DNA of 64,000 bases, from positions 226,556 through 290,555 of the forward strand of contig JACRGC010000009.1 in assembly GCA_016212475.1 (NCBI GenBank). The letters are read 5' to 3'. How positions within the stretch are numbered: position 1 is the stretch's first letter; every line of letters starts with the position of its first letter. Positions 3,108 through 32,983 of this stretch are shown in pieces. This DNA comes from Candidatus Micrarchaeota archaeon (GTDB lineage Archaea > Micrarchaeota > Micrarchaeia > Norongarragalinales > SBBD01). A program made the translations under genes and the position numbers. Under the pieces are notes generated by a model. The model worked only from the letters and a program-made list of their open reading frames with translations. It was not told the DNA's origin and made no database searches.

Positions 3108-5888
3108 GTGGCACTTGACATACTTGCAATATTCGTAGTTGGGTTGATTTTTTTAATTCCCGGAGTTTTGCTATCCTTAGCGCTTCTTAAGGGCGTCAAG
3201 CTCAACTTTTTCGAAAAAGCCTTCATCGGCGGGATCATAGGCTCGCTTGCAAACCCGCTTCTTTCGGTTCTGGAATTTTCCTTCTTCAAGGCCGATCTAA
3301 CTTCCAGCTTAGTCATGATCAATGCCTTCATCCTCATCCTTGCCTCCATTGTTGCCATGTTTTTGCAAAAGCAAATAAAACTGCCTGAAAACATGGGCAA
3401 ATATTTTTCAGTTGAATACCACACCAAAAAAATCGATTCGGCGCCGATGAATTATGTGATCTATGCCCTTTTGCTAATCATTATTTTAATGTCCTTTTAT
3501 GTCAGGTTTGCCTCGAGCAATGCGACGAATTTCTTTGAATTTGATCCCTACTATTATGACAAGGTAACCGAGCTCGTAGTAACAGAGGGCCACGCTCCCC
3601 TAGTCAGCCAAATCTCGTATTTCCCAAGGGCAAGGAGCTTTAGGGAGCTTCCAATAATCCATTACATGACCGGCAGCTGGTACTTGCTCTACCAAGGCTT
3701 TACCGGCAAAGCATATTTGCAAAATGACTTAATACAAGTAATCCAGTTCTATCCGCCCCTTGTTGCTATGTTCATGGTGTTTTTGGCGTTCCTGTTCATC
3801 AAGGAAGAATCCAACATTTATTTGGGCCTAATAGCCGCTGCAATGTTTGCATTTACTCCCCAGCTTATAAAAAAACTGGGCGCCGGAGTAACCGAGCAAT
3901 CGCCCCTTGGAATATTTGCGGCAATGTTCATATTCTGCGCCTACGCCCTGGCAGTCAATCGGAAAAGCAACAGATTGGCGCTCCTTACCGTATTTTCAAT
4001 AATTATTGCATTCCTTGGCTCGGCGCACAACGTCTGGCCAATCATGATATTATCCGCTTTCATTTTTGTGACTTCCATTTTGGATTTTTACCTATCAGAA
4101 CTAACGCTTCGGGATGTCAAAATCAATCTTCTAATAGGGTCTACGGGCCTTATTGCCAATGCGATATTCCTTCTATACCGTGAAACGGCAATCAATCCAT
4201 TTATTTTCAATCCTGCAATCCTTTTCCTGTTTGCTGCTGCAATCCCTTCGCTGGTATTATATTATTCGCAAAAAATCCACTTCCTGAAAAAATATTCGAA
4301 GCCACAAATTCTTGGCGCATTTATGGCATTGCTTATATTTATCGTCCTAATAACGCCCCTTTCAACAATTGCCTTTGGGTTTGTCAATTCCCTACTTAGA
4401 TATGCAAAGGCGGATACTCCGCTAAACAGGACAGTTCAGGAGGAAAATGCAACTTCGGAGGGGCTATTTGGCTCATCTTTTGGAGTGCTAAATCCAAACC
4501 AGCTGCTCTTGATTTCAACTGTTTTGCTGATTGGGTATGCTGCGCTTTCTCTTAAGAAAAAAGGCTACCAGTTTTCACTAGCCTACCTAACCGGCGCTTT
4601 CATAATAATTTTCCTAAACAAGCAAATCGATTGGTTCTTTTCAATAATTGCAGATTTGCTTTCGGGCTCTCAGCCGGCGATTTCACAATTATTCAGGTTC
4701 ATAATCGAAGGCGATGTTTTCCTCTACCTGATTATTTCATTCATTTCCGTTTGCATTGTTTACCTCTACGAGGAAAAACGCTCAAGGATGACTTTGCTTT
4801 TCCTTCTTGCATTCTTCCCAACCGCCTACATCGGCCTATCAAAAGTCAAATACCTGCTCCATTTGGCGTTTGCAGTTGCACTTGCATTGCCCTTCGTTCT
4901 GATGATTTTTAGCGAACTTTTAACAAGGCTCAATTCCGAATTCAAACTGATCGCAAATGATAGCACCCTAAAAAGCGGGATTTTGGTGTTTGTTTTAATC
5001 ATAGGGGCCACTGCCGCATACAAGCAATATGAAACCACCTCCCAATCCATGCAAGAGCTTCAATACTCTAGAATGTCGTCGGATTGGACCGAAACAACAA
5101 GCTGGATGCACGCAAACCTTGGCAAAAACTACCGCATCATTTCCTGGTGGGACTATGGCCACTGGACAACCTTCTTTGGGGGGACCAACACGGTTTTGGA
5201 CCCAAGCAATTACTTTGGCGATTACGATCAATTAACTGCAACTGCCTTTGTCGAAGGCGATGCCAAGCGCTTAATAAAAATAATGAAATACCACAATGCA
5301 ACGCACATACTTTTGGATTCCGAGCTGGTTCCCAAATGGGGCGCCCTTGTCTACCTTTCCGGAACATTCAAAGGGCTATCCGATGATCCCCAATTTGACA
5401 GGGTTCCTTTTATTCCATCCACGAGTTCGCCGGGCTCTTCGGAATATGAAACAGAGCATTATTTTGAATATGTTTACCAGGTCCTAACGCAGGCTTCTGA
5501 TGGGTCGTTTAAGCCAACCGCCTGCCCTGGCATCATACAAAAGCAGATGCTCTATTCCTCATTTGGGGCCGCCTATTGCATAGATTCAACCGGCAACCTG
5601 AATTTGCTTGGCCAAAACGGCGAGCAAAAACCCGTCAATTGGAGCCCAATCCCAACCGGCGATACCGGTGTTGCGCCAGCGCCCCTTGGGAACAACTTAT
5701 TTTTCAACCAGCGCTACAGCTTCATAAATGTCAACCCCGATCTTAACGCAATCACAAACGGAAGGCTTACCAGCAAACTTATCAATTCGCCTTTCGTCAA
5801 CTTGTTCTTCTACGAAAAGCTTGAGGGGTTTGAACTTGCGCACAAATCGCCAAACGGCCAGGTCAAAATTTTCAAATTGGTAGCTTAG
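3108..5888 (+). CDS. aglB: Archaeal oligosaccharyltransferase AglB (STT3 family)
   Basis: 926 aa, ~13 N-terminal TM helices, diagnostic WWDYGHW motif; GTG start preceded by AGGGGG SD-like sequence. Confidence 0.9.
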   Translation: MALDILAIFVVGLIFLIPGVLLSLALLKGVKLNFFEKAFIGGIIGSLANPLLSVLEFSFFKADLTSSLVMINAFILILASIVAMFLQKQIKLPENMGKYFSVEYHTKKIDSAPMNYVIYALLLIIILMSFYVRFASSNATNFFEFDPYYYDKVTELVVTEGHAPLVSQISYFPRARSFRELPIIHYMTGSWYLLYQGFTGKAYLQNDLIQVIQFYPPLVAMFMVFLAFLFIKEESNIYLGLIAAAMFAFTPQLIKKLGAGVTEQSPLGIFAAMFIFCAYALAVNRKSNRLALLTVFSIIIAFLGSAHNVWPIMILSAFIFVTSILDFYLSELTLRDVKINLLIGSTGLIANAIFLLYRETAINPFIFNPAILFLFAAAIPSLVLYYSQKIHFLKKYSKPQILGAFMALLIFIVLITPLSTIAFGFVNSLLRYAKADTPLNRTVQEENATSEGLFGSSFGVLNPNQLLLISTVLLIGYAALSLKKKGYQFSLAYLTGAFIIIFLNKQIDWFFSIIADLLSGSQPAISQLFRFIIEGDVFLYLIISFISVCIVYLYEEKRSRMTLLFLLAFFPTAYIGLSKVKYLLHLAFAVALALPFVLMIFSELLTRLNSEFKLIANDSTLKSGILVFVLIIGATAAYKQYETTSQSMQELQYSRMSSDWTETTSWMHANLGKNYRIISWWDYGHWTTFFGGTNTVLDPSNYFGDYDQLTATAFVEGDAKRLIKIMKYHNATHILLDSELVPKWGALVYLSGTFKGLSDDPQFDRVPFIPSTSSPGSSEYETEHYFEYVYQVLTQASDGSFKPTACPGIIQKQMLYSSFGAAYCIDSTGNLNLLGQNGEQKPVNWSPIPTGDTGVAPAPLGNNLFFNQRYSFINVNPDLNAITNGRLTSKLINSPFVNLFFYEKLEGFELAHKSPNGQVKIFKLVA

Positions 5889-18924: not shown

Positions 18925-21900
18925 TCAACTAACCTTGAATACCGTTCCAGCTACTCCGGCTGATGTTTGCGTATCCAATCTTACAAAGTAGGTGTAGCCC
19001 GATACCGTATTGCTAAATGTCGTGTAATAATTTCCTGTTCCTCCAACCTGCGCAATTACCGGAAGTGTTGAGGATGATGTGAAATTCGTTGTTGTATTTT
19101 GATACATTACAACCGCAGTTGAGTTTTGTGCATTGCTCCAAATGTAGGCGGTTTGGCTAGCTGTGAATGTTGTCGAATTCGTGCCTGTTGTATCGTTTGT
19201 TGTCCAAACCTTGTATGAATACGAGTTTGCAGATCCGAATATCTCGCCAATTGCCTTTGCTGTCCCATAGTTGGTAATTTCAGCAACAAATACGTACTTG
19301 CCAGGTATTGTTATGTTGACTGACACATTGACAGAGCCTCCCGTTAGGTTGATTGATGTGTTCGTATAAGTAACATTGGCAGCTGATGGCGAAAACACCC
19401 TAAGGGATGCAATCAGTGGTGTTAGGACACCTGCAATTGAAATATTTACGGGGAATGCGATGCTAGCATTCATTATTGATGGGAGCGTCACATTCATCAG
19501 TGCGGATGAATTTTGCACCTGCAAAAGTATCGAATCTGCGCCAAATGATGAATTCATCTGCATGTATGCAATTACCGTATATGAACCAACTGCCTGTGGC
19601 GTATCCGGGATTGTTGTTGTAAGGGTGTATGGCTGCCCGCCTGAAATCGTCATTGGAAGGGTAATCGATCCCCTGTTCTTATCCCAAATAATTATGGATC
19701 CCGAAGTAGGTGTTAGCGCAGCTAGGGTTGTTGCATTCGAAACATTGACGCTAAATGTTATATTTTGGCCAAGGGTAAATGAATTTGTGCTGCCAACCCC
19801 TAGGGAAACAATCAGGCTGCTGACCGAAAATCCGGTGTATGATTGAGTTGTTGTCGAGCTTGTAAGATATGCCCTTAGGTAATAATTCCCATCCGAAGTT
19901 GGCATGTTAACCGGCGAAACACTAAGCGCGGCTTTTCCGGACGCATCCGTTAATGCAGAGCCAACCAATGTTGCCGATCCGGTTGCGGAGCCAATTTCAA
20001 ATGATACATTCGATCCATTTACTGGGGTGTTATTTCCAGCTGAAACAAGTGTTGCCGTAAATACTGCGCCATCACCTACTTTGTATGGCTGGCTTGGAGC
20101 CCTATCTGCAATAACTGTCAGTTTTTGCCCTCCTGAAATTACAACCGGGATTGCAGCAAACCCCGTATCCCCATTTGCAAGTGTTATTTTTACATCCAAA
20201 AAGTAAGTGATTGATGGCGCATTGCTTGGAATTGCATATGTGAATGTCCCAATGTATGGGCCATTTAGGCCGTTTCCTATGAATGCAATATTATTCGTTG
20301 AAATTTCAGAAGAGCTTCCATATGCGAATAATTTTGCAGAAACGGATGCATTCGATGCATTTGCGCCCGTGACATTAATTGTAGCAGTCATTGTATCGCC
20401 AGGCGAGTAGCTATCCCTGTTGAGGGCCAAAGCCAGGTTCATTCCCGAAACCAAAAATCCTGTGAATGCGGTTTGGCCCAAAACCGTCGTCTTTACGTAA
20501 TGGAAACCAGATTTTGTCAAATTGAATGAAAGATATGCAATTCCCAGCCCGTTTGTTACATTGCTTGCATTCCTAAGCTGCAAATCCCCGCTTTGTTGGA
20601 ATTTGAATAATGTGCCATTAACTGCTACTCCTGCACTTCCATTCCCGTTTGTCATGTTTGTAACTTTGATTAGGATGGTTGCATTCTCCCCGATTTGGTA
20701 GCTGAATTTATCCGGCGTAGTTACAACGCTTACAACGTTCACATCAAAGCTGGCAAAAACAGACTGAGAGTTGGTTCCGGAGGAAAATGAAAATTCAATC
20801 TGGTGCCTTCCCGGCGTCCATGTTGCGGATGGGGCTCCAAACAGCACCTGCGGTGAAATCACCACCCTGAATCCGAACGGTGTTTGCTGCTTATCCTGCT
20901 GCATGGGTGTATATTGCAAATTATCGACAAGAAGGGATGGCTGCTGGGGCTGGCCGTTGAAGAAAATGTTCAAAGTGACGTTATCCTCCGGCAAATAGTT
21001 CGGCTTATCTGTTGATATTTGCACATCAAATCCCTTGACATTGAATCCGGCAAATACCTCCTGCTGGATTACCTGCGTAGCTGTGCTTGAAGCAATTTTC
21101 AACCTGACTGCGTGGAATCCAAATGACCAGTTTCCTCCTGCAACTGCAATCGGGTTGAATGCCAGTGTCCCCAAGCCGGATGCATCCGTTTGCCCAAATG
21201 TTGCATTCTGGTTCGAATCAACCAATCCTTCGATGCTGGCATTGGCAACTGCGCCTCCGGTTGAATTCAAAACCTTAACCGTCAGCAATACCTGCTCATT
21301 TGGCTTGTAGTTTTGCTTGTCAAAATCCGTGCTGATTATGAAATTTGTTACCTGCAGGAAATTGTTTGCATACCCGGATTGCGAACCCGCATTCAAAACA
21401 ACCGACATCTCGTAAAATCCTACCTGCGAGGTAATATCTGAAACGAGCACGGAAAATGCGCCTTCGCCGGAGGTTACGGTTGCGCTTTGCGATGATCCAA
21501 CCTGAACCCCGGACATATCATAAAATGAAATGGTTGCAGTCCCGGATACCGCTGTTCCGTTTGCCAAATAAGCATAAATCTTGCCCTTGATTGATTCGGT
21601 TGTTGCAAAAGAGAATTTTGCAAGCTCAAGGCCCAAATCAAAATCCGAAACCGTGAATGGGAAAGTGGTTGTCCCAAACGTTGTCTGGTTTGCAACAAGG
21701 TCTGATGTTGCATTGAACAGCATCATGTATTTCCCTGCTGCAATATTGAAATCAGCGGGCCTAAACGAGGCATTGAACCCGCCTGCGGCGACAATTGGAC
21801 CGGGGATTTTTATATTGCTGTAATAAACCATTGAAATTCCATTTGACATGTTGCCCGCGTAGCTTCCATTCAACTGCAATGCCTGGATGTTCACATTGAT

Positions 21901-24084
21901 TTTTGTGTTGTCAAGAATTGCCGGCGGATTTTGCCCAAAATCATAAACCGCAGTTTCAACCTTGTTGTTTTGGGTTGTCCTCATCTGGAAATTCATGGAC
22001 GGGTTTATCTGCCATCCAGGTGTTTGCCTCCTAACCGTTATGCTATTCACCTGCCCGGCAACTATTGTTGCAGTTCCTTTGTAGTGTATACCGAGGGGCG
22101 ATCTGAAGGGGAATTTTGGAATTATTGAGAAATTATAATTGCCTGCGGGGATTTTTAGGAGGATTTGGCCGGGGTTTCTGAATGCATTCTCCTGCGCCAT
22201 TGTGCCTTCCTCAAAGCTTGCAACCAGCCCGTTCGCATTTGATAGCACGATCCTTGAATCGAACCAGATGTTGAATGCGTTATTCCTCTGGGCGCATGTG
22301 AAAATGCTATCCATGCACTCTTCAACCGTAATGTTCAATCCTCCTGGCGTGCTGTTTAGGGTGCAGGTCACCTGGGATACCTGCCCTTGGGCAACTGCTG
22401 TGCTGTTCATGCATATATGCGTAACCTGCGGAGGCTCGTTTTGCGCGCCCGATATGTTAACCCCATAAATTGTCAGGTAAACCGTATTGATTGGGGCAAC
22501 GAGGGGGATGAACATGCTAGTTGGGATTGCAACATTTGAGAAAATATTGATGGGGCTCATCCTTGATGAAAACGCGTCCCTAGTTGCTCCAGCAGGAAGG
22601 CTAAGGAGCCTTGCCACTTCGCTTAATACCCCTGTTGCATTCCTAAGAATCACATTCAAATTGACAGTTCCGCCGCTTTGTATAGTTAGCTGGGGCAAAA
22701 TCACCGTATCCTGCTGTGCAAAATACCCCCGCCCATTGTTTGTGTTTATTGTTGGGTTGTAAATCAAGGATCCCGTTAGCGGGTTTGTATCATTTGCAGC
22801 AATCAGGAATTTGTACGGGACATTCTTTGGAACCCGAATTCTGAAAATCCCATTCGGATCCGTAAAGCTGGAATTCACAAGCCCAATCCCCATCGGCGGC
22901 GAAAACCCAAATAATGGCTGTGCGTAAACAATTCCTGTTGTTACAAGCGAGCCGCTTTGGTTGATTACTTTCCCAATGAAAGTCGTGTATTCCGTTGCTG
23001 CCTTGTAGACAATGATTGCACCTGTCATTCCAATATTTGTCGGTATGAATGGGTATTGGTTGTCAAAATATGTCATGTTGCCAGAAGTATTCAAATTCCC
23101 GGTAAATCTTATGTAATATCTCTTGAATGGTGCAACGAACCCAGGGGATCCGCCGCCCATGCCCCCTCCTTGTGAAGGCAAATCAAACAGCAAGCCATTT
23201 GTTTCGTTTAGGATTTGCGTGCCATTCTGGCTTGGGAACGATGGCTGCTCGCCTGGCTGCCCAAAGAACGGGAACATCTGCGTTTGGATAATTGATATTG
23301 GCGATGTCAAATTGTAAAATACAAATGCCGAGTTGTCGAAATTAACCGTCGCATTTGTAGAATTTGAGGAAATGAAATCAAAGAACAGGATTTTTTGGGT
23401 GCTATCTGTGCAAACATATCCAGGGCCCGATTGGACATTTGGAAACGGTATTCCGTGCACTCTGCAAGCGTTTAGGCAAAGCGTTCCAGATAGCGGCCCA
23501 AGGCAATGCTCCATGTAATGCCCAAATGCATCCGTCAATGCCGGCCCTTGGCTTGCAAACCTTGCAGAAGTCTCATTGAACAGCATAAACAGCGTGTTTG
23601 CTGTATTGGTCCTAATATTCAGGTAGTTCAACGTGTATTGCTGCATTAACGCTGGATTCAAATGCGCAGTAACGTTTAAGGTCACTTTTGCATTACTCCA
23701 TGTGGTATTAAGGCCAAACTTTGCACATCTATCGATATTTGGCCCGCCTCCCAATAATGGCGGGTTGATTGTGCAGTTCATGCTTGGCATCTGATATAGC
23801 GTATCTGTTGCATTATTGCCAAACGTTCCGGATGCGCACTGTGAAAAGTTTGCACTATTATATATCACTAATTGGTCATTGAGCCAAAATGTGAAATTCG
23901 TGCTATCATTTACGCTTTGCGCCTGGTTTGAATATGAGCAAAGTTCAACTGTCAGATTGCCCGATGTTCCTTGGGATGGGAATGCATCATTCAAATAAAA
24001 GAAGGCATCAGCACTTGTTGCAAATGCTATTAGTAAAACGTATGCTAGTGCTAATTCTTTTCTCAAGCGGATCACGGTGTTCAA
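18925..24084 (-). CDS. Giant secreted surface/S-layer-like protein (1719 aa), N-glycosylation sequon-rich
   Basis: Signal peptide MNTVIRLRKELALAYVLLIAFATSADA; >100 N-x-S/T sequons; Asn/Thr/Ser/Gly-rich Ig-like repeat composition; no TM anchor. Confidence 0.7.
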   Translation of the reverse strand: MNTVIRLRKELALAYVLLIAFATSADAFFYLNDAFPSQGTSGNLTVELCSYSNQAQSVNDSTNFTFWLNDQLVIYNSANFSQCASGTFGNNATDTLYQMPSMNCTINPPLLGGGPNIDRCAKFGLNTTWSNAKVTLNVTAHLNPALMQQYTLNYLNIRTNTANTLFMLFNETSARFASQGPALTDAFGHYMEHCLGPLSGTLCLNACRVHGIPFPNVQSGPGYVCTDSTQKILFFDFISSNSTNATVNFDNSAFVFYNLTSPISIIQTQMFPFFGQPGEQPSFPSQNGTQILNETNGLLFDLPSQGGGMGGGSPGFVAPFKRYYIRFTGNLNTSGNMTYFDNQYPFIPTNIGMTGAIIVYKAATEYTTFIGKVINQSGSLVTTGIVYAQPLFGFSPPMGIGLVNSSFTDPNGIFRIRVPKNVPYKFLIAANDTNPLTGSLIYNPTINTNNGRGYFAQQDTVILPQLTIQSGGTVNLNVILRNATGVLSEVARLLSLPAGATRDAFSSRMSPINIFSNVAIPTSMFIPLVAPINTVYLTIYGVNISGAQNEPPQVTHICMNSTAVAQGQVSQVTCTLNSTPGGLNITVEECMDSIFTCAQRNNAFNIWFDSRIVLSNANGLVASFEEGTMAQENAFRNPGQILLKIPAGNYNFSIIPKFPFRSPLGIHYKGTATIVAGQVNSITVRRQTPGWQINPSMNFQMRTTQNNKVETAVYDFGQNPPAILDNTKINVNIQALQLNGSYAGNMSNGISMVYYSNIKIPGPIVAAGGFNASFRPADFNIAAGKYMMLFNATSDLVANQTTFGTTTFPFTVSDFDLGLELAKFSFATTESIKGKIYAYLANGTAVSGTATISFYDMSGVQVGSSQSATVTSGEGAFSVLVSDITSQVGFYEMSVVLNAGSQSGYANNFLQVTNFIISTDFDKQNYKPNEQVLLTVKVLNSTGGAVANASIEGLVDSNQNATFGQTDASGLGTLAFNPIAVAGGNWSFGFHAVRLKIASSTATQVIQQEVFAGFNVKGFDVQISTDKPNYLPEDNVTLNIFFNGQPQQPSLLVDNLQYTPMQQDKQQTPFGFRVVISPQVLFGAPSATWTPGRHQIEFSFSSGTNSQSVFASFDVNVVSVVTTPDKFSYQIGENATILIKVTNMTNGNGSAGVAVNGTLFKFQQSGDLQLRNASNVTNGLGIAYLSFNLTKSGFHYVKTTVLGQTAFTGFLVSGMNLALALNRDSYSPGDTMTATINVTGANASNASVSAKLFAYGSSSEISTNNIAFIGNGLNGPYIGTFTYAIPSNAPSITYFLDVKITLANGDTGFAAIPVVISGGQKLTVIADRAPSQPYKVGDGAVFTATLVSAGNNTPVNGSNVSFEIGSATGSATLVGSALTDASGKAALSVSPVNMPTSDGNYYLRAYLTSSTTTQSYTGFSVSSLIVSLGVGSTNSFTLGQNITFSVNVSNATTLAALTPTSGSIIIWDKNRGSITLPMTISGGQPYTLTTTIPDTPQAVGSYTVIAYMQMNSSFGADSILLQVQNSSALMNVTLPSIMNASIAFPVNISIAGVLTPLIASLRVFSPSAANVTYTNTSINLTGGSVNVSVNITIPGKYVFVAEITNYGTAKAIGEIFGSANSYSYKVWTTNDTTGTNSTTFTASQTAYIWSNAQNSTAVVMYQNTTTNFTSSSTLPVIAQVGGTGNYYTTFSNTVSGYTYFVRLDTQTSAGVAGTVFKVS

Positions 24085-28379: not shown

Positions 28380-28754
28380 TCAAAAATTAGACTTTGTTTT
28401 AGCTCCCCGCAAATATCCTAAGCTTGTCGGGATCCTTCTTGATTTCATGCACAAGGTTCGATGGCCCAACAATTGTTGCCCATTTGCCTTCCCCCCAAGC
28501 AATTTGATCAGGCTCTTCCGAACGCTAGATGGCTCTTCCCCAAAGGATGAAATTTCAATTCCGGGAAAATCCTTCGTTATGCCCTCCATTGTCCGCTGGT
28601 AAAGTATGCGCTCCTCCTCCCTTGTCAGCGCCTCTTCCAAAATCAATATTTTCTTTTCCTTCTTCACGGCATTTAGGATATATTTTACCTTATCCTCGAC
28701 ATCCTTGCTCCGCAGAGTTTTGGAACTTACAAATTCAAGCTGCAAACCTGCCAT
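28380..28754 (-). CDS. Small archaeal conserved protein (DUF2073-like)
   Basis: KKILILEEALTREEERILYQRTMEGITKDFPGIEISSF resembles the DUF2073 family that neighbours a small GTPase in Euryarchaeota. Confidence 0.4.
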   Translation of the reverse strand: MAGLQLEFVSSKTLRSKDVEDKVKYILNAVKKEKKILILEEALTREEERILYQRTMEGITKDFPGIEISSFGEEPSSVRKSLIKLLGGKANGQQLLGHRTLCMKSRRIPTSLGYLRGAKTKSNF

Positions 28755-29090
28755 TTATTCTTCCTCCTCTGTTTCATCGTTTTCAAGCGCCCAGCTAAGA
28801 AAGCAAGCGCCAAAATACCAATAAATAAGGCTGAATGTGAGCCCAAGGAACGACATCGCATTTTGGCACTCGATATCGCTAACGCCGCAAAGCTGTGAAA
28901 GGCCAAGAAGGGGCCAGGCCAAAATTGTCATGACCGGCAAGTATATCCAATCCGGCACATCGATCAAAAGGCCCAAAAACACTATGAATAGCAGGAAAAA
29001 TGTCAGCGAGATCTTTTCAAGCGTTGGCTGCAAAAATACAATTCCCCTGCGAAGGATCCTGCCAAATGTTGTTTCTGCCATAATTTTCAT
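28755..29090 (-). CDS. Small membrane protein (3 TM), acidic C-terminus
   Basis: 111 aa; between DUF2073-like gene and GTPase, same strand, overlapping stop/start. Confidence 0.4.
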   Translation of the reverse strand: MKIMAETTFGRILRRGIVFLQPTLEKISLTFFLLFIVFLGLLIDVPDWIYLPVMTILAWPLLGLSQLCGVSDIECQNAMSFLGLTFSLIYWYFGACFLSWALENDETEEEE

Positions 29091-31129
29091 CTTGCATGCT
29101 TTGCTATCATTTCATAAAGCAGGTTCATGTTTTCGCCAGTAAGCGCTGAAACGGACACCACATGGTGCTGCGGGAATGCTTCCCTAACCTTTTCCGGCTT
29201 TGCCTTTTTGCTATCCATCTTGTTTGCCACAATTATGACCGGGATTTTCCTAGCCTCCAAATTCCCTAAAATTGTGATATTTACCTGCGTGAATGGGTCT
29301 TCTGATGAATCCATGACAACAAGGGCGGCATCGACGTTTTCAAGCCATTTGATTGCTTCAATGATTCCTTTCGTAGCCTCCTTTGCCCGGGTTTGCGCTT
29401 CCTCTTTTTTCAATCCATACGCTGAAAATTCCCTGTAATCAACTTTTGTTGCAATCCCTGGCATATCCAAAAGGTTCATCTCAAGCTCCTTGCCTTTTGA
29501 TTTTACAATCACGTGCTCCTTTTTTTGGACCTCCCGAGTTTCATGGGGGATTTCGGAAACTTTCCCAACGGGTTCGCCAAGCCAATCCATTGAAATGCGA
29601 TTGGCCAAACTGGTGTTGTGGACAATCAATCCATCCCAAGTTGTGAACGTGTGGTTTCCATCAACCGTCAAGTCGTAAATATGCCCGTTGTAATCCTGCT
29701 CTTCCAAACTTACAATCTCATCAAAGAATACATCTGCCTCCGAGATTTTTTTAATTGGCGCCAAAATTCCCAGTTCGCCCCATTTTCCTATGATCCCATT
29801 AACCCTATCAACACTTATCCGATTGGCCTTTGCATCCCTGGCAAAATGATATCCTTTCCCATAAAATTGCCTTATTTCAAGCCCCAAATCCTTCCTGGCT
29901 GTTTCCAGCATAGGAACTATTGGGAGTACGTGCACATTTGCCTTGCTGCCAAACTTGCAGATTTCCGCCAATTTTTCCTGCTTTTGACGAAGCGAAAAGC
30001 CAATCTCCCTTGCAAATGCCCTATGGTTTTCGGATCTTAAGATTTCAAGCATAAAATATGTTTTTCCCCTGATTTGCTTATCGCGAATGAGCGAAGGAAT
30101 CCCAAACCTTAGCAGTAGGATTTGCACCCCTCCGACAAGCTCCCTGCTTGCGCTTGAAAGCTCGACTTTCCTTTGCGAGTCCGTATTTCCAGCAACGCTT
30201 CCTTCGCAATCAAACATTGTCCTTAGGAATTCCCTAGCTGTTTCAGTATCCGATAAAAGGATGCTCCTTGGCACCTTCTTGCTTGCCGATAGCCCCGGAT
30301 GCAGATCAAAGCATTTGTGAAGGTATTCTACCAATGATTTGTTGTAAATGTCCATTTGCGGTGTCTTATCCCCCACTTTTTTGTATTTTGCATCGACATT
30401 GAATTCGTGCTTTGCAATGTCCCTGAAGTCCTCCCTGAGGTTTTCGTCTTCGTTGTAAAAGTTGATGTCATTTTTGCCATGGCTTGCCTCGGAAATCGTA
30501 TATGCAAAAAATCTGGCAATGCTTGGGTTCATGCTGAATTGAGGCTTGAATGATTTGGGTGTGTGGTTTTTCATTTTCAATACCATTTCGCCCCCATCCT
30601 CGGAAATGGCAAAACTTTCAGGGATTTTTATTCTCTCAAAATCATGCAATGGAGTAAGGGTGCGAAGCACGGCGACTTGAGCGCCTTCATTTAGATTTCC
30701 TGCCTTTATCTCTTCAACCCCATTTGCTGTAATGGCAATGAATGGATGGTCGGGACTTGCGCAGACGGTTTTGCCGTTCCGTGTCCGTATTTTTATCATC
30801 TTCCCAAAATATTTCTGCCGAAACACGTGCGAAACGGTTTTGAAATCGGTTTTCAGGGTCTCCTTGTTGAATGAGGGCACGACAATTCCAATATCTTCGC
30901 AGGGGATGTAAAGCTCATCTTTTGAAAGATCGCCGCCTTTTTGCGAATGCGCCCTTTCAAAAACTTTTTCGATGTTTTCGTATGTTCCATTTGCAAGAAG
31001 GATCCGCTCCCCTTCTGCAAGGCACTTCCCTGCGTTAGGTGCGCCATAAAACCCTAATCGTATGATTTTTTTCTTTCCAAAAAGGTTTGATAGCCAGCGC
31101 AAAAATCTCCTAAACGGCATGTGGGTCAC
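29087..31129 (-). CDS. Small Ras-like GTP-binding protein interrupted by a 470-aa intein in the P-loop
   Basis: Extein N: ...GFYGAPNAGK | intein | TSLANRI.. reconstitutes Walker A GAPNAGKT; downstream DMPG (G3), NKMD (G4), SAL (G5). Extein total ~210 aa. Confidence 0.8.
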   Translation of the reverse strand: MTHMPFRRFLRWLSNLFGKKKIIRLGFYGAPNAGKCLAEGERILLANGTYENIEKVFERAHSQKGGDLSKDELYIPCEDIGIVVPSFNKETLKTDFKTVSHVFRQKYFGKMIKIRTRNGKTVCASPDHPFIAITANGVEEIKAGNLNEGAQVAVLRTLTPLHDFERIKIPESFAISEDGGEMVLKMKNHTPKSFKPQFSMNPSIARFFAYTISEASHGKNDINFYNEDENLREDFRDIAKHEFNVDAKYKKVGDKTPQMDIYNKSLVEYLHKCFDLHPGLSASKKVPRSILLSDTETAREFLRTMFDCEGSVAGNTDSQRKVELSSASRELVGGVQILLLRFGIPSLIRDKQIRGKTYFMLEILRSENHRAFAREIGFSLRQKQEKLAEICKFGSKANVHVLPIVPMLETARKDLGLEIRQFYGKGYHFARDAKANRISVDRVNGIIGKWGELGILAPIKKISEADVFFDEIVSLEEQDYNGHIYDLTVDGNHTFTTWDGLIVHNTSLANRISMDWLGEPVGKVSEIPHETREVQKKEHVIVKSKGKELEMNLLDMPGIATKVDYREFSAYGLKKEEAQTRAKEATKGIIEAIKWLENVDAALVVMDSSEDPFTQVNITILGNLEARKIPVIIVANKMDSKKAKPEKVREAFPQHHVVSVSALTGENMNLLYEMIAKHAR
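29615..31024 (-). mobile_element. Intein with LAGLIDADG homing-endonuclease domain (in-frame in GTPase gene)
   Basis: Starts Cys (CLAEGERILLANG, block A), block B VCASPDHPF, HEN-like LRTMFDCEGSV, terminal ..LIVHN followed by +1 Thr. Confidence 0.75.
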
Positions 31130-31222
31130 TTGTGGGTTGTTTTATGTTTAGGTAAAATTACATGCCAAGCCTTAAAAAACTTATTTGAATGCTTTCGAGG
31201 AGCAATACCTGCTAGATTACAA

Positions 31223-32983
31223 TCAGAATGAAAAGCTAATAAGCCCCTTTAATTTCTTGATTTCCTGCAAAATTTCCTTCTCCCCTTCGGTTAGGCTTTG
31301 GAGGTATTTTTTTTCAATAATTTCTATTTCCTCCTCATGAATATCCGTATAGAGGACCTGCTTTTCCTTGACCTGCCTTCCGTATGTGACTCCGGCCATT
31401 GAAATTGCTACTTCCTGGCCCTTCTTTGCCTCTTCAACTGCCTCCTTTTCCGCCTGAATGCCCTGGATTTCGCCAACATATTCTCCCTTATCATCCATCA
31501 GGCGGTTTTCCTTTCTGATCCTGCCTTCCATGATTTGCACCCCAAAAACAGCCGGGTTGCTCACCCTAAAGCAATGGTTTGGCATGAGGAACACTTTTGC
31601 CGGAAGAGTCAGGGTTGAAAATGCGGTTTTTCTCTCTGCACTAAGAAGCTTATCCTTCCATTCCTTGTAGTTCAATATTAAATTGTAAATTATTTTCTCA
31701 TCGAAAATCTTTATCCCTTCAAACTCAGCTAGCGCCCTAACTTCGGAATCAATCTGGGAATGGAACGCAAAAATCACCCCAAGCAATTTGTCTTTTTTCC
31801 CAACGCTTCCGGATTCCATCACATCCTTCTTTAGCACTTTTCCAATCGATGCTGTTCTGATTGGGATTTTTTCCGCATGGAAAAGCTTGACAATTGCTTC
31901 CAAGCTCCCAAGCGCGTCCGCTTTTATGATTACCCCATCATCCTCGCTTGCAACTTCGATTTCACGGATTTCATTTTTCAGCTCAAGTTCGGTTTCAGCT
32001 GCATTTTTCTGCCTATACTCCAAAAACGAAGAACCAACCAGCGCCTCATCTGCAAAGTCGCATGCGATTTTGACTCCTGCAGCTGCAACCGCTTTTTCAA
32101 CCTTCCTGAATTTTGTCTCCCGCTCTTCCGATGATGGCTTAAGTATCGCCTTTACCTTTGATTTGGCAATGTTTCCATCGATTTTAAGGAAAGTGATCAA
32201 ATCGCCCTCTTCCAAAGATCCCTTGTAAATTATCACATCCAATGTTCTTCCAAGCCCCTTCTCATCCTTAACTTCCAAAATCGCGCCCCTTGTCAGCTCC
32301 TCTTCGCTATTTTCCAGCTCTTTTTCCAAAAACCGCTGTGCCAAACCAGAAACGAACAGCAAAACCTCTGAAATCCCTTCGGAAGTCCTGGCGGAAACCG
32401 GAACAATTGCAATCTGCTTTGTGAAATCGGAAACGCGATCAAACCTTTCAGCTGAAAAGCCAAAATCAGATAGCTGGCCAACAAGCTCGTAAATTTTAAT
32501 ATCCAAATTCTCCTGCACATCGTTCCTTTGCAACTTTAGCGCCTCAGAAAAAGATTCCTTATTGGAATTTTTCCAGCCAGACATCGCATCAATTTTAGTT
32601 GCTGCAACTATGAACGGAGTTTTGTACTCTTTTAGGATCCCAATTGCCTCCCTTGTCTGGTTTTGCATTCCCTGATTGATATCGATAACAAGTATTGCAA
32701 TATCGGCAATGCTTCCTCCCCTCTTCCTAAGGTTCACAAACGCCTCGTGCCCCGGCGTATCAATAAAAAGCAGCCCCGGAAGCGTCAAAACGATTTTCAT
32801 CTTCTCAAGCAAATCCCCGGCAAGCATGCGAATTGCAAAAGCCGGAACTTCTGAAGCCGAAACATGCTGGGTAATCCCGCCCGATTCCTTCCCGGCTACA
32901 CCAGATCTTCTGATGGTATCGAGTAGAGTTGTTTTCCCATGATCGACGTGCCCAAGCACGCAAACAATTGGCTGCCTAATCAT
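31223..32983 (-). CDS. infB: Translation initiation factor aIF5B (IF2 homologue)
   Basis: PIVCVLGHVDHGKTTLLD, DTPGHEAF, NKID; 586 aa four-domain architecture. Confidence 0.85.
   Translation of the reverse strand: MIRQPIVCVLGHVDHGKTTLLDTIRRSGVAGKESGGITQHVSASEVPAFAIRMLAGDLLEKMKIVLTLPGLLFIDTPGHEAFVNLRKRGGSIADIAILVIDINQGMQNQTREAIGILKEYKTPFIVAATKIDAMSGWKNSNKESFSEALKLQRNDVQENLDIKIYELVGQLSDFGFSAERFDRVSDFTKQIAIVPVSARTSEGISEVLLFVSGLAQRFLEKELENSEEELTRGAILEVKDEKGLGRTLDVIIYKGSLEEGDLITFLKIDGNIAKSKVKAILKPSSEERETKFRKVEKAVAAAGVKIACDFADEALVGSSFLEYRQKNAAETELELKNEIREIEVASEDDGVIIKADALGSLEAIVKLFHAEKIPIRTASIGKVLKKDVMESGSVGKKDKLLGVIFAFHSQIDSEVRALAEFEGIKIFDEKIIYNLILNYKEWKDKLLSAERKTAFSTLTLPAKVFLMPNHCFRVSNPAVFGVQIMEGRIRKENRLMDDKGEYVGEIQGIQAEKEAVEEAKKGQEVAISMAGVTYGRQVKEKQVLYTDIHEEEIEIIEKKYLQSLTEGEKEILQEIKKLKGLISFSF

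Follow-up and report, generated by a model that had tools for sequence, protein, structure and literature searches.

A predicted class-1 intein with a LAGLIDADG endonuclease domain in the Walker A motif of an ArvA/OapA-family GTPase gene from a Micrarchaeota archaeon

How can a gene encode a small GTPase if 470 codons separate the two halves of its nucleotide-binding loop, and what is the intervening sequence? The question is raised by a minus-strand open reading frame (ORF) at 29087..31129 in a 64,000-nucleotide stretch of DNA, called the window below, from Candidatus Micrarchaeota archaeon (assembly GCA_016212475.1, contig JACRGC010000009.1, positions 226,556 to 290,555 of the forward strand). 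In the ORF listing this frame has 680 uninterrupted codons. An earlier note on this DNA, made from the letters alone, had read it as a Ras-like small GTPase with a LAGLIDADG intein in its P-loop. We consider it very probable that the Walker A motif of an ArvA/OapA GTPase is split here by a canonical class-1 intein with a LAGLIDADG homing endonuclease nested in it and a helical accessory domain.

The limits of the insert were located by script: the Cys of CLAEGER is residue 36 of the ORF and the Asn of IVHN is residue 505, giving the 470 residues that the note had proposed. The junction reads GAPNAGK/C...HN/TSL (slashes mark splice points here and below), which shows that the insert separates the Lys of the Walker A motif from the Thr; removal of the insert restores GAPNAGKT. 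Both nucleophiles are in place, Cys1 at ORF residue 36 and Thr+1 at ORF residue 506. Excision of residues 36-505 in silico yields a product of 210 aa, ...GFYGAPNAGK/TSLANRI... (counted from the GTG start; about 207 aa from the ATG), in which the DMPG, NKMD and SAL motifs can be read, as expected from the predicted GTPase of about 210 aa. The match to MMR_HSR1 grows on in-silico splicing from profile positions 14-113 at 36.4 bits to 2-113 at 58.9 bits. On the precursor, besides MMR_HSR1, Pfam reports Intein_splicing (PF14890, 4.3e-24, residues 46-505) and LAGLIDADG_3 (PF14528, 1.8e-23, residues 297-377), and NCBIfam reports intein_Nterm (TIGR01445, 9.1e-14, residues 36-131) and intein_Cterm (TIGR01443, 5.4e-6, residues 483-506), which bears out the proposal of a Cys1...HN/Thr+1 intein with a LAGLIDADG core.

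An independent check on this reading is whether relatives have the gene without the insert. Among the matches listed, the orthologues closest to the spliced sequence, at 68-90% identity, have a length of about 207 aa and no intein domain, the sole exception being P0012, this gene's own truncated annotation. A cluster look-up at 90% identity or above returned four members, namely MBI5224971.1, an identical 677-aa protein, and two intein-free proteins of 207 aa. One intein-free protein of 207 aa, P0297, is 98.5% identical to the spliced extein, with three residues different. Its contigs come from Hainich groundwater metagenomes, show the same gene order as the window (aIF5B, arvA, a 111-aa ORF, OapB and a 433-aa protein) and are 80-86% identical to the window DNA. 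When the window is aligned by blastn to the intein-free loci L033-L035, the match ends at window position 31026 and resumes at 29605. The 470-aa region is an insertion, precisely missing from near-identical orthologues.

Intein-free alleles, on which the earlier note had suggested that its reading would turn, therefore exist in close relatives, and the extein aligns collinearly with orthologous GTPases of 207 aa. A native accessory domain is ruled out because these near-identical orthologues do without the 470-aa region. A chimera of the assembly is likewise ruled out, since an independent assembly encodes the identical 677-aa protein.

The precursor gene (arvA/oapA, 29087..31120, minus strand) probably starts at the ATG at 31120, codon 4 of the ORF, and not at the GTG at 31129 where the listed frame begins, because the intein-free orthologues are 207 aa long and begin with MPFRRF. 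From this ATG the reading frame runs unbroken for 2,034 nt and encodes 677 aa, and gene calling in an independent Logan assembly gave the same protein of 677 aa (P0296). The public annotation MBI5224971.1 (P0012, '50S ribosome-binding GTPase') has 274 aa and starts at ORF residue 407, within the intein; it lacks 371 residues of the intein as well as everything before them, the N-extein with the first half of the P-loop. This short call is a gene-calling choice, the other pipeline having given the full 677 aa, and the present analysis corrects it. Such genes will be overlooked, or given a wrong size, in surveys of ArvA or of inteins that draw on annotated proteins.

All parts of the gene lie on the minus strand. 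The N-extein (32 aa, 31025..31120) consists of an N-terminal helix-like segment, PFRRFLRWLSNLF, and GAPNAGK (31025..31045), and it aligns to the N-termini of P0001 and P0297. The class-1 intein itself runs from Cys1 to Asn470 (29615..31024); the Pfam, NCBIfam and PDB matches, the structural model and the blastn break together define it as a Hint domain combined with a LAGLIDADG endonuclease and a helical accessory domain. The N-terminal part of the Hint domain covers intein residues 1 to about 125 (30650..31024, boundary approximate), where TIGR01445 matches and where the model is rich in beta structure at residues 1-120. Cys1, at the 31024 end of this part, is the first residue of block A; block B, VCASPDHPF with Ser90 and His93, was placed by motif position at 30740..30766. 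The LAGLIDADG homing-endonuclease domain (PF14528), with an alpha/beta pattern in the model, spans intein residues of about 166-360 (29945..30529, boundaries approximate). Its first LAGLIDADG motif, ARFFAYTISEASHG, occupies residues 170-183 and includes Glu179 (30476..30517); the second, FLRTMFDCEGSV, occupies residues 266-277 and includes Glu274 (30194..30229). Between the endonuclease and block F lies the helical accessory domain (residues of about 361-430, 29735..29944), for which the model has five short helices at 370-428. The C-terminal part of the Hint domain (29615..29734; TIGR01443 at precursor residues 483-506) contains block F, IYDLTVDGNHTF with Asp451 (29645..29680), and block G, LIVHN with His469 and Asn470 (29615..29629). 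The C-extein (175 aa plus stop, 29087..29614) opens with Thr+1 (29612..29614), which completes GAPNAGKT, and carries DMPG, NKMD and SAL.

In an alignment of 31 family members, H93 is invariant, and C1, S90, E179, D272, E274, G275, D451, H469, N470 and the Thr that opens the C-extein are each shared by at least 90% of the sequences. The window copy holds all of these conserved residues. It also has a Cys at position 88 (30761..30763, minus strand), two residues before the block B Ser, reading VCASPDH where the family consensus is VTVSPEH(PF).

The AlphaFold model of the intein, built on the family alignment, has a pLDDT of 92.9 and a pTM of 0.91. Its best structural match in the PDB is the TliVMA intein (7qss; E 7.7e-31, TM 0.78/0.84), followed by PI-TkoII and PI-PfuI, all three of them archaeal inteins associated with a homing endonuclease, and it also matches I-DmoI. 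A sequence search of the PDB likewise returned archaeal inteins, with TliVMA the best (2.7e-18). TliVMA interrupts the P-loop of the V-ATPase A subunit, has a helix-turn-helix-like accessory domain and has an endonuclease that is active in vitro (PMC8966425); judged by position in the model, the helical segment at about 361-430 would be equivalent to that accessory domain. The intein of the Thermococcus litoralis V-ATPase A subunit (VMA-b site) thus resembles ours in its Hint, LAGLIDADG and helical accessory domains and in its place in the P-loop of a nucleoside triphosphatase (NTPase). It differs in having a V-type ATPase as host instead of a small GTPase, in its sequence (about 20% identity in the structural alignment), and in having Asp at the endonuclease active sites (PMC8966425), where the window copy has Glu179 and Glu274.

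What is the host protein? Compared over its full length, the extein shows 45-48% identity to those of intein-bearing GTPases from haloarchaea, and the Halomarina halobia homologue (L012) lies directly upstream of Pfam-confirmed OapB (7e-41) and OapC (2e-26). In the window, the gene at 28380..28754 (minus strand), which the earlier note had called DUF2073-like, is arvB/oapB by its match to the OapB family (PF09846, formerly DUF2073; 1.1e-11). It lies one small gene further downstream than in haloarchaea, an arrangement repeated in five related loci. Because OapB is found downstream and the haloarchaeal homologue belongs to an oapA-oapB-oapC operon, we identify the GTPase as OapA. By sequence and gene order, the host is a small GTPase of the ArvA/OapA family. 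The description of the host as a Ras-like small GTPase was thus right as to the small GTPase, and is refined by the operon and by the published account of the family (PMC10927574).

ArvA, for 'archaeal vesiculating GTPase', is the new name of OapA (HVO_3014 in Haloferax volcanii), whose knockout abolished and whose overexpression raised the production of extracellular vesicles in that species (PMC10927574). The family has been reported in seven DPANN phyla, and arvC, which encodes the DUF2072/OapC zinc-ribbon protein, lies within two genes downstream in 78% of genomes (PMC10927574). The vesicle role was demonstrated only in Haloferax volcanii (PMC10927574), and by analogy the ArvA of the window may share it. 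Both proteins are single-domain small GTPases that have a helix-like segment at the N-terminus, and both genes lie upstream of the one for OapB/ArvB; the Haloferax system differs in its ArvC, which was not found in the window. The three downstream ORFs gave no Pfam match to OapC/ArvC, and tblastn with the Halomarina OapC over the 64-kb window gave a best E of 0.37; arvC may be located in another part of the genome.

If the intein works as its residues predict, the 677-aa precursor would be made with a broken P-loop and, from intein chemistry, should therefore be unable to bind GTP. Cys1 would undergo an N-to-S acyl shift, the hydroxyl of Thr+1 would attack the thioester to give a branched intermediate, and Asn470 would cyclise with the help of His469 and release the 470-aa intein. 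An O-to-N shift would leave a native Lys-Thr bond in an active GTPase of about 207 aa. The freed intein would cut intein-less arvA at the DNA spanning the GK/TS codons; in the in-silico spliced window, the reconstructed intein-less site is TATGGCGCACCTAACGCAGGGAAG/ACCAGTTTGGCCAATCGCATTTCA. Repair templated on the intein-bearing copy would then copy the element in. Such homing would explain a patchy spread at one site over Halobacteriales, Nanohaloarchaeota, Micrarchaeota and other DPANN archaea.

To see how far the allele extends, we used the intein alone as a query. This returned 27 further protein clusters, all of them GTPases of about 618-687 aa or fragments, with the junction GK/C...HN/T. 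At least 21 loci in GTDB species-representative genomes have the same junction, with intein lengths of 186-483 aa; that scan used a single peptide pattern, which the window's own YNGHIYDLT does not fit, so that the source genome and close Micrarchaeota copies are missed by it. Six of the scan's matches (L024-L029) were set aside as unrelated KlbA-type mini-inteins of Methanococcales. Most of the 21 loci belong to Halobacteriales (Natronomonas, Natronosalvus, Natronoarchaeum, Halomarina, Halocatena and several metagenome-assembled genomes, MAGs), and the same allele also occurs in Nanosalina and other DPANN archaea. The database ArvA inteins of Natronomonas aquatica F2-12, Halalkaliarchaeum desulfuricum, Halomarina halobia, Natronosalvus hydrolyticus and a Nanosalina MAG share the host family, site and domain build of the window copy and are 40-64% identical to its intein. 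The window copy differs from them in being from Micrarchaeota, in the small gene between arvA and arvB and in having no detectable arvC.

The family includes elements at several stages. Two proteins of 618 aa (P0146, P0147) contain 403-aa inteins with a partial deletion of the endonuclease, a protein of 421 aa (P0200) contains a 223-aa mini-intein, and mini-inteins of 186-275 aa occur in haloarchaeal ArvA (L019-L023), Halocatena marina being one example. The full, the decaying and the minimal forms, together with many empty sites, would fit a homing cycle of gain, decay and loss. In extein identity to the window, the intein-free alleles stand at 98.5% (P0297), 90% (P0001) and 89%, and the nearest intein-bearing allele (P0121) at 86%; because intein-free alleles are closer than the nearest intein-bearing one, the distribution is patchy in Micrarchaeota too. 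The allele is evidently long-lived and shared across archaeal phyla.

A neighbour-joining tree of the inteins roughly follows the hosts, with Halobacteriales apart from Micrarchaeota and other DPANN archaea, and the window intein and that of P0121 form a branch separate from the haloarchaeal inteins. Pairwise identities of inteins and exteins correlate (Spearman 0.77; tree congruence is uninformative at three major clades), which appears to agree with inheritance mainly within lineages. In the same tree the Nanosalina MAG intein (P0142, a partial protein) groups with haloarchaeal inteins. It is 49-55% identical to haloarchaeal inteins from identified genera, as against 35-42% to other DPANN inteins, and its short extein is about equally distant from all others. 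This grouping of one partial sequence in a neighbour-joining tree may hint at intein exchange between Nanohaloarchaeota and haloarchaeal hosts.

Several observations weigh against the reading of a splicing and homing intein. Splicing and DNA cleavage are both predicted from conserved residues and from signatures of selection. The block B Ser replaces the usual Thr, and both predicted catalytic residues of the endonuclease are Glu instead of Asp; each of these variants is consistent across the family. Between the reconstructed homing site and the closest intein-free alleles, 13-15 of 48 nucleotides differ, all of the differences being synonymous. The closest known intein (P0121, in L030) is only 64% identical, so that there is no sign of recent transfer into this genome. 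Selection on the extein was measured against the intein-free L033 allele: the ratio of nonsynonymous to synonymous substitution rates (dN/dS) is 0.019 at dS 0.76, which indicates that the host gene is under strong purifying selection, although this selection is not assignable specifically to the time after the intein arrived. Because the constraint on the extein is so strong, the intein-bearing allele would still yield a working protein. This ratio, together with the uninterrupted 2,034-nt frame, the full set of splicing residues, a gene that is still translationally coupled to conserved downstream genes and the full-length call by the other pipeline, speaks against an allele inactivated by an insert that destroyed the GTPase and left no functional product. 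Such a pseudogene would suit the public annotation, whose 274-aa fragment starts inside the intein; we regard it as very improbable indeed.

It is harder to decide whether the endonuclease is still mobile. The intein might splice and otherwise be a vertical passenger, kept because an imprecise deletion would destroy an important GTPase. That no close donor or recipient is known, the differences in the target site, the rough agreement of the intein tree with host groups, and the degraded and mini versions in some haloarchaea are all as one would expect of a passenger. Against the P0121 intein, the proportion of differing synonymous sites (pS) is 0.86, which is saturated, and that of nonsynonymous sites (pN) is 0.25; a dN/dS ratio is not computable at saturation, and we report pN and dN instead. 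By dN, at 0.30 in each, the endonuclease and Hint domains are equally constrained, which would be unexpected if the endonuclease were dead and is the pattern that a still-selected endonuclease would show, its activity being a prediction. The LAGLIDADG helices are intact, as are the two catalytic Glu residues, and among close relatives alleles with the intein (P0121) are interspersed with alleles that lack it (P0297 and P0001). We therefore hold the passenger explanation to be possible and somewhat doubtful. The window and P0297 offer a natural intein-plus/intein-minus allele pair, with exteins 98.5% identical, that is useful for tests of both splicing and homing.

A different proposal is that the intein has been co-opted as a post-translational switch that yields active ArvA only under particular redox, temperature or ligand conditions. 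An insertion in the P-loop guarantees an inactive precursor, conditional splicing has been shown for the P-loop inteins of RadA and DnaB (PMC4513877, PMC6195587), and the extra Cys88 beside block B could conceivably pair with Cys1. That Cys is not conserved in the family (consensus VTVSPEHPF), most ArvA genes are without an intein, and the conserved endonuclease favours a selfish lifestyle over host control; we judge the switch to be quite unlikely. About as unlikely, in our estimate, is the broader idea that the intein is more than a selfish passenger, either because conditional splicing gates a vesicle-budding GTPase or because its spread traces DNA exchange between DPANN symbionts and their hosts. 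The Nanosalina grouping is the only hint for the exchange version, which if true could conceivably proceed via the vesicles that ArvA helps to make.

Where might the intein of arvA have come from? P-loops are well known as a hotspot of intein insertion (Novikova et al. 2016, PMC4760082). In an exhaustive HMMER search of 1.8 billion representatives, ArvA inteins took the top places (E 1e-99 to 1e-110). Two partial ArvA alleles of other DPANN archaea came next, after which the values dropped to about 1e-51 and weaker; across searches, ArvA inteins scored 1e-99 to 1e-207, as against 1e-51 or weaker for other inteins. Nearly all of the next matches that we inspected are inteins between the Walker A Lys and Thr or Ser, and they are 30-32% identical over the full length. 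They include inteins of an AAA ATPase (GPPGCGK/C...HN/T), of PilB/T2SSE-like ATPases (GGTASGK/C...HN/T), of MCM (GDPGxxK/C...HN/, then S or T) and of SRP54 (GLFGSGK/C...HN/T). The exception among those inspected is a second MCM intein (P0221), which lies elsewhere in its protein. The MCM-a, RFC-a, DnaB-b and aIF2 P-loop inteins (PMC4760082) similarly share the insertion point (GK/C...HN/, then T or S), the class-1 type and the LAGLIDADG endonuclease with the window copy, and differ in their host genes. On these comparisons the ArvA intein is best described as a distinct allele within the known P-loop intein group and not as a recent copy of the others, and an ancient, rare jump between similar P-loop sites probably brought it to arvA, which we consider a reasonable inference.

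A recent capture from the aIF5B gene that adjoins arvA was considered and rejected. The NCBIfam model of intein-containing IF-2 does match precursor residues 29-412 (9.8e-39). The aIF5B gene is intein-free, the window has no second copy of the intein, and ArvA inteins score far above all others.

The earlier note had added that a small GTPase of this kind is not a commonly reported intein host. For the searchable literature this is correct: in a full-text search we found no paper naming ArvA/OapA or archaeal small GTPases as an intein host, and the word 'intein' is absent from the ArvA paper (PMC10927574). A survey of haloarchaeal inteins lists 13 host genes with 24 alleles, and 'GTP' and 'GTPase' are absent from its text (PMC4071816); the top 15 archaeal intein hosts given in the text of PMC4760082, supplementary tables aside, include aIF2 and no small GTPase. 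The statement does not extend to sequence databases, where the 27 clusters and at least 21 representative genomes are already public and where one JGI record is labelled 'intein/homing endonuclease/GTPase SAR1 family protein'. Because the allele is already in public databases, the novelty of the host gene is smaller than the note implied; the allele appears undescribed in searchable papers, yet it has already been noticed by database annotators. The element is ordinary in kind, a class-1 endonuclease-bearing P-loop intein, and leaves the understanding of inteins unchanged. What it adds to the intein-invaded P-loop NTPases is a vesicle-linked small GTPase, a non-replication gene in a genome-reduced DPANN lineage.

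The genes around arvA are closely packed. The ATG of the 111-aa ORF (28755..29090, minus strand) overlaps the arvA stop (ATGA), and arvB begins directly after the stop of that ORF, so the three genes have no spacers between them. The conserved-looking trio of the earlier note is real for this lineage, given this packing and the counterparts in related loci. The 111-aa product is a small hydrophobic, apparently membrane protein that has no Pfam or NCBIfam match. The proteins encoded at the corresponding place in L001 and L002 are 71% identical to it, and in L030, L031, L033 and L034 that place is taken by a called ORF of 102-112 aa. The protein has an acidic tail and is conserved in related Micrarchaeota-like loci; its gene is absent from the Halomarina operon (L012), the one haloarchaeal operon examined.

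Immediately upstream of arvA is the aIF5B/IF-2 gene (31223..32983, minus strand), identified by Pfam GTP_EFTU, IF-2 and GTP_EFTU_D4 and having the intein-free P-loop GHVDHGKTT. It is syntenic in L001, L002 and L033, and in other archaea inteins are known from its P-loop. The 93 nt that separate aIF5B from arvA (31130..31222, minus strand) contain the A/T-rich AAATAAGTTTTTTAAGG about 50-60 nt upstream of the arvA ATG, which could be a candidate TATA-like archaeal promoter element. Elsewhere in the window, and unrelated to the intein, there is a 1,719-aa ORF (18925..24084, minus strand); a protein of 1,698 aa in a related locus has faint alpha-2-macroglobulin-type Pfam matches, and the window aligns to part of the gene for that protein. 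Equally unrelated to the intein, the gene at 3108..5888 (plus strand) encodes an AglB/STT3-type oligosaccharyltransferase (PF02516, 3e-12).

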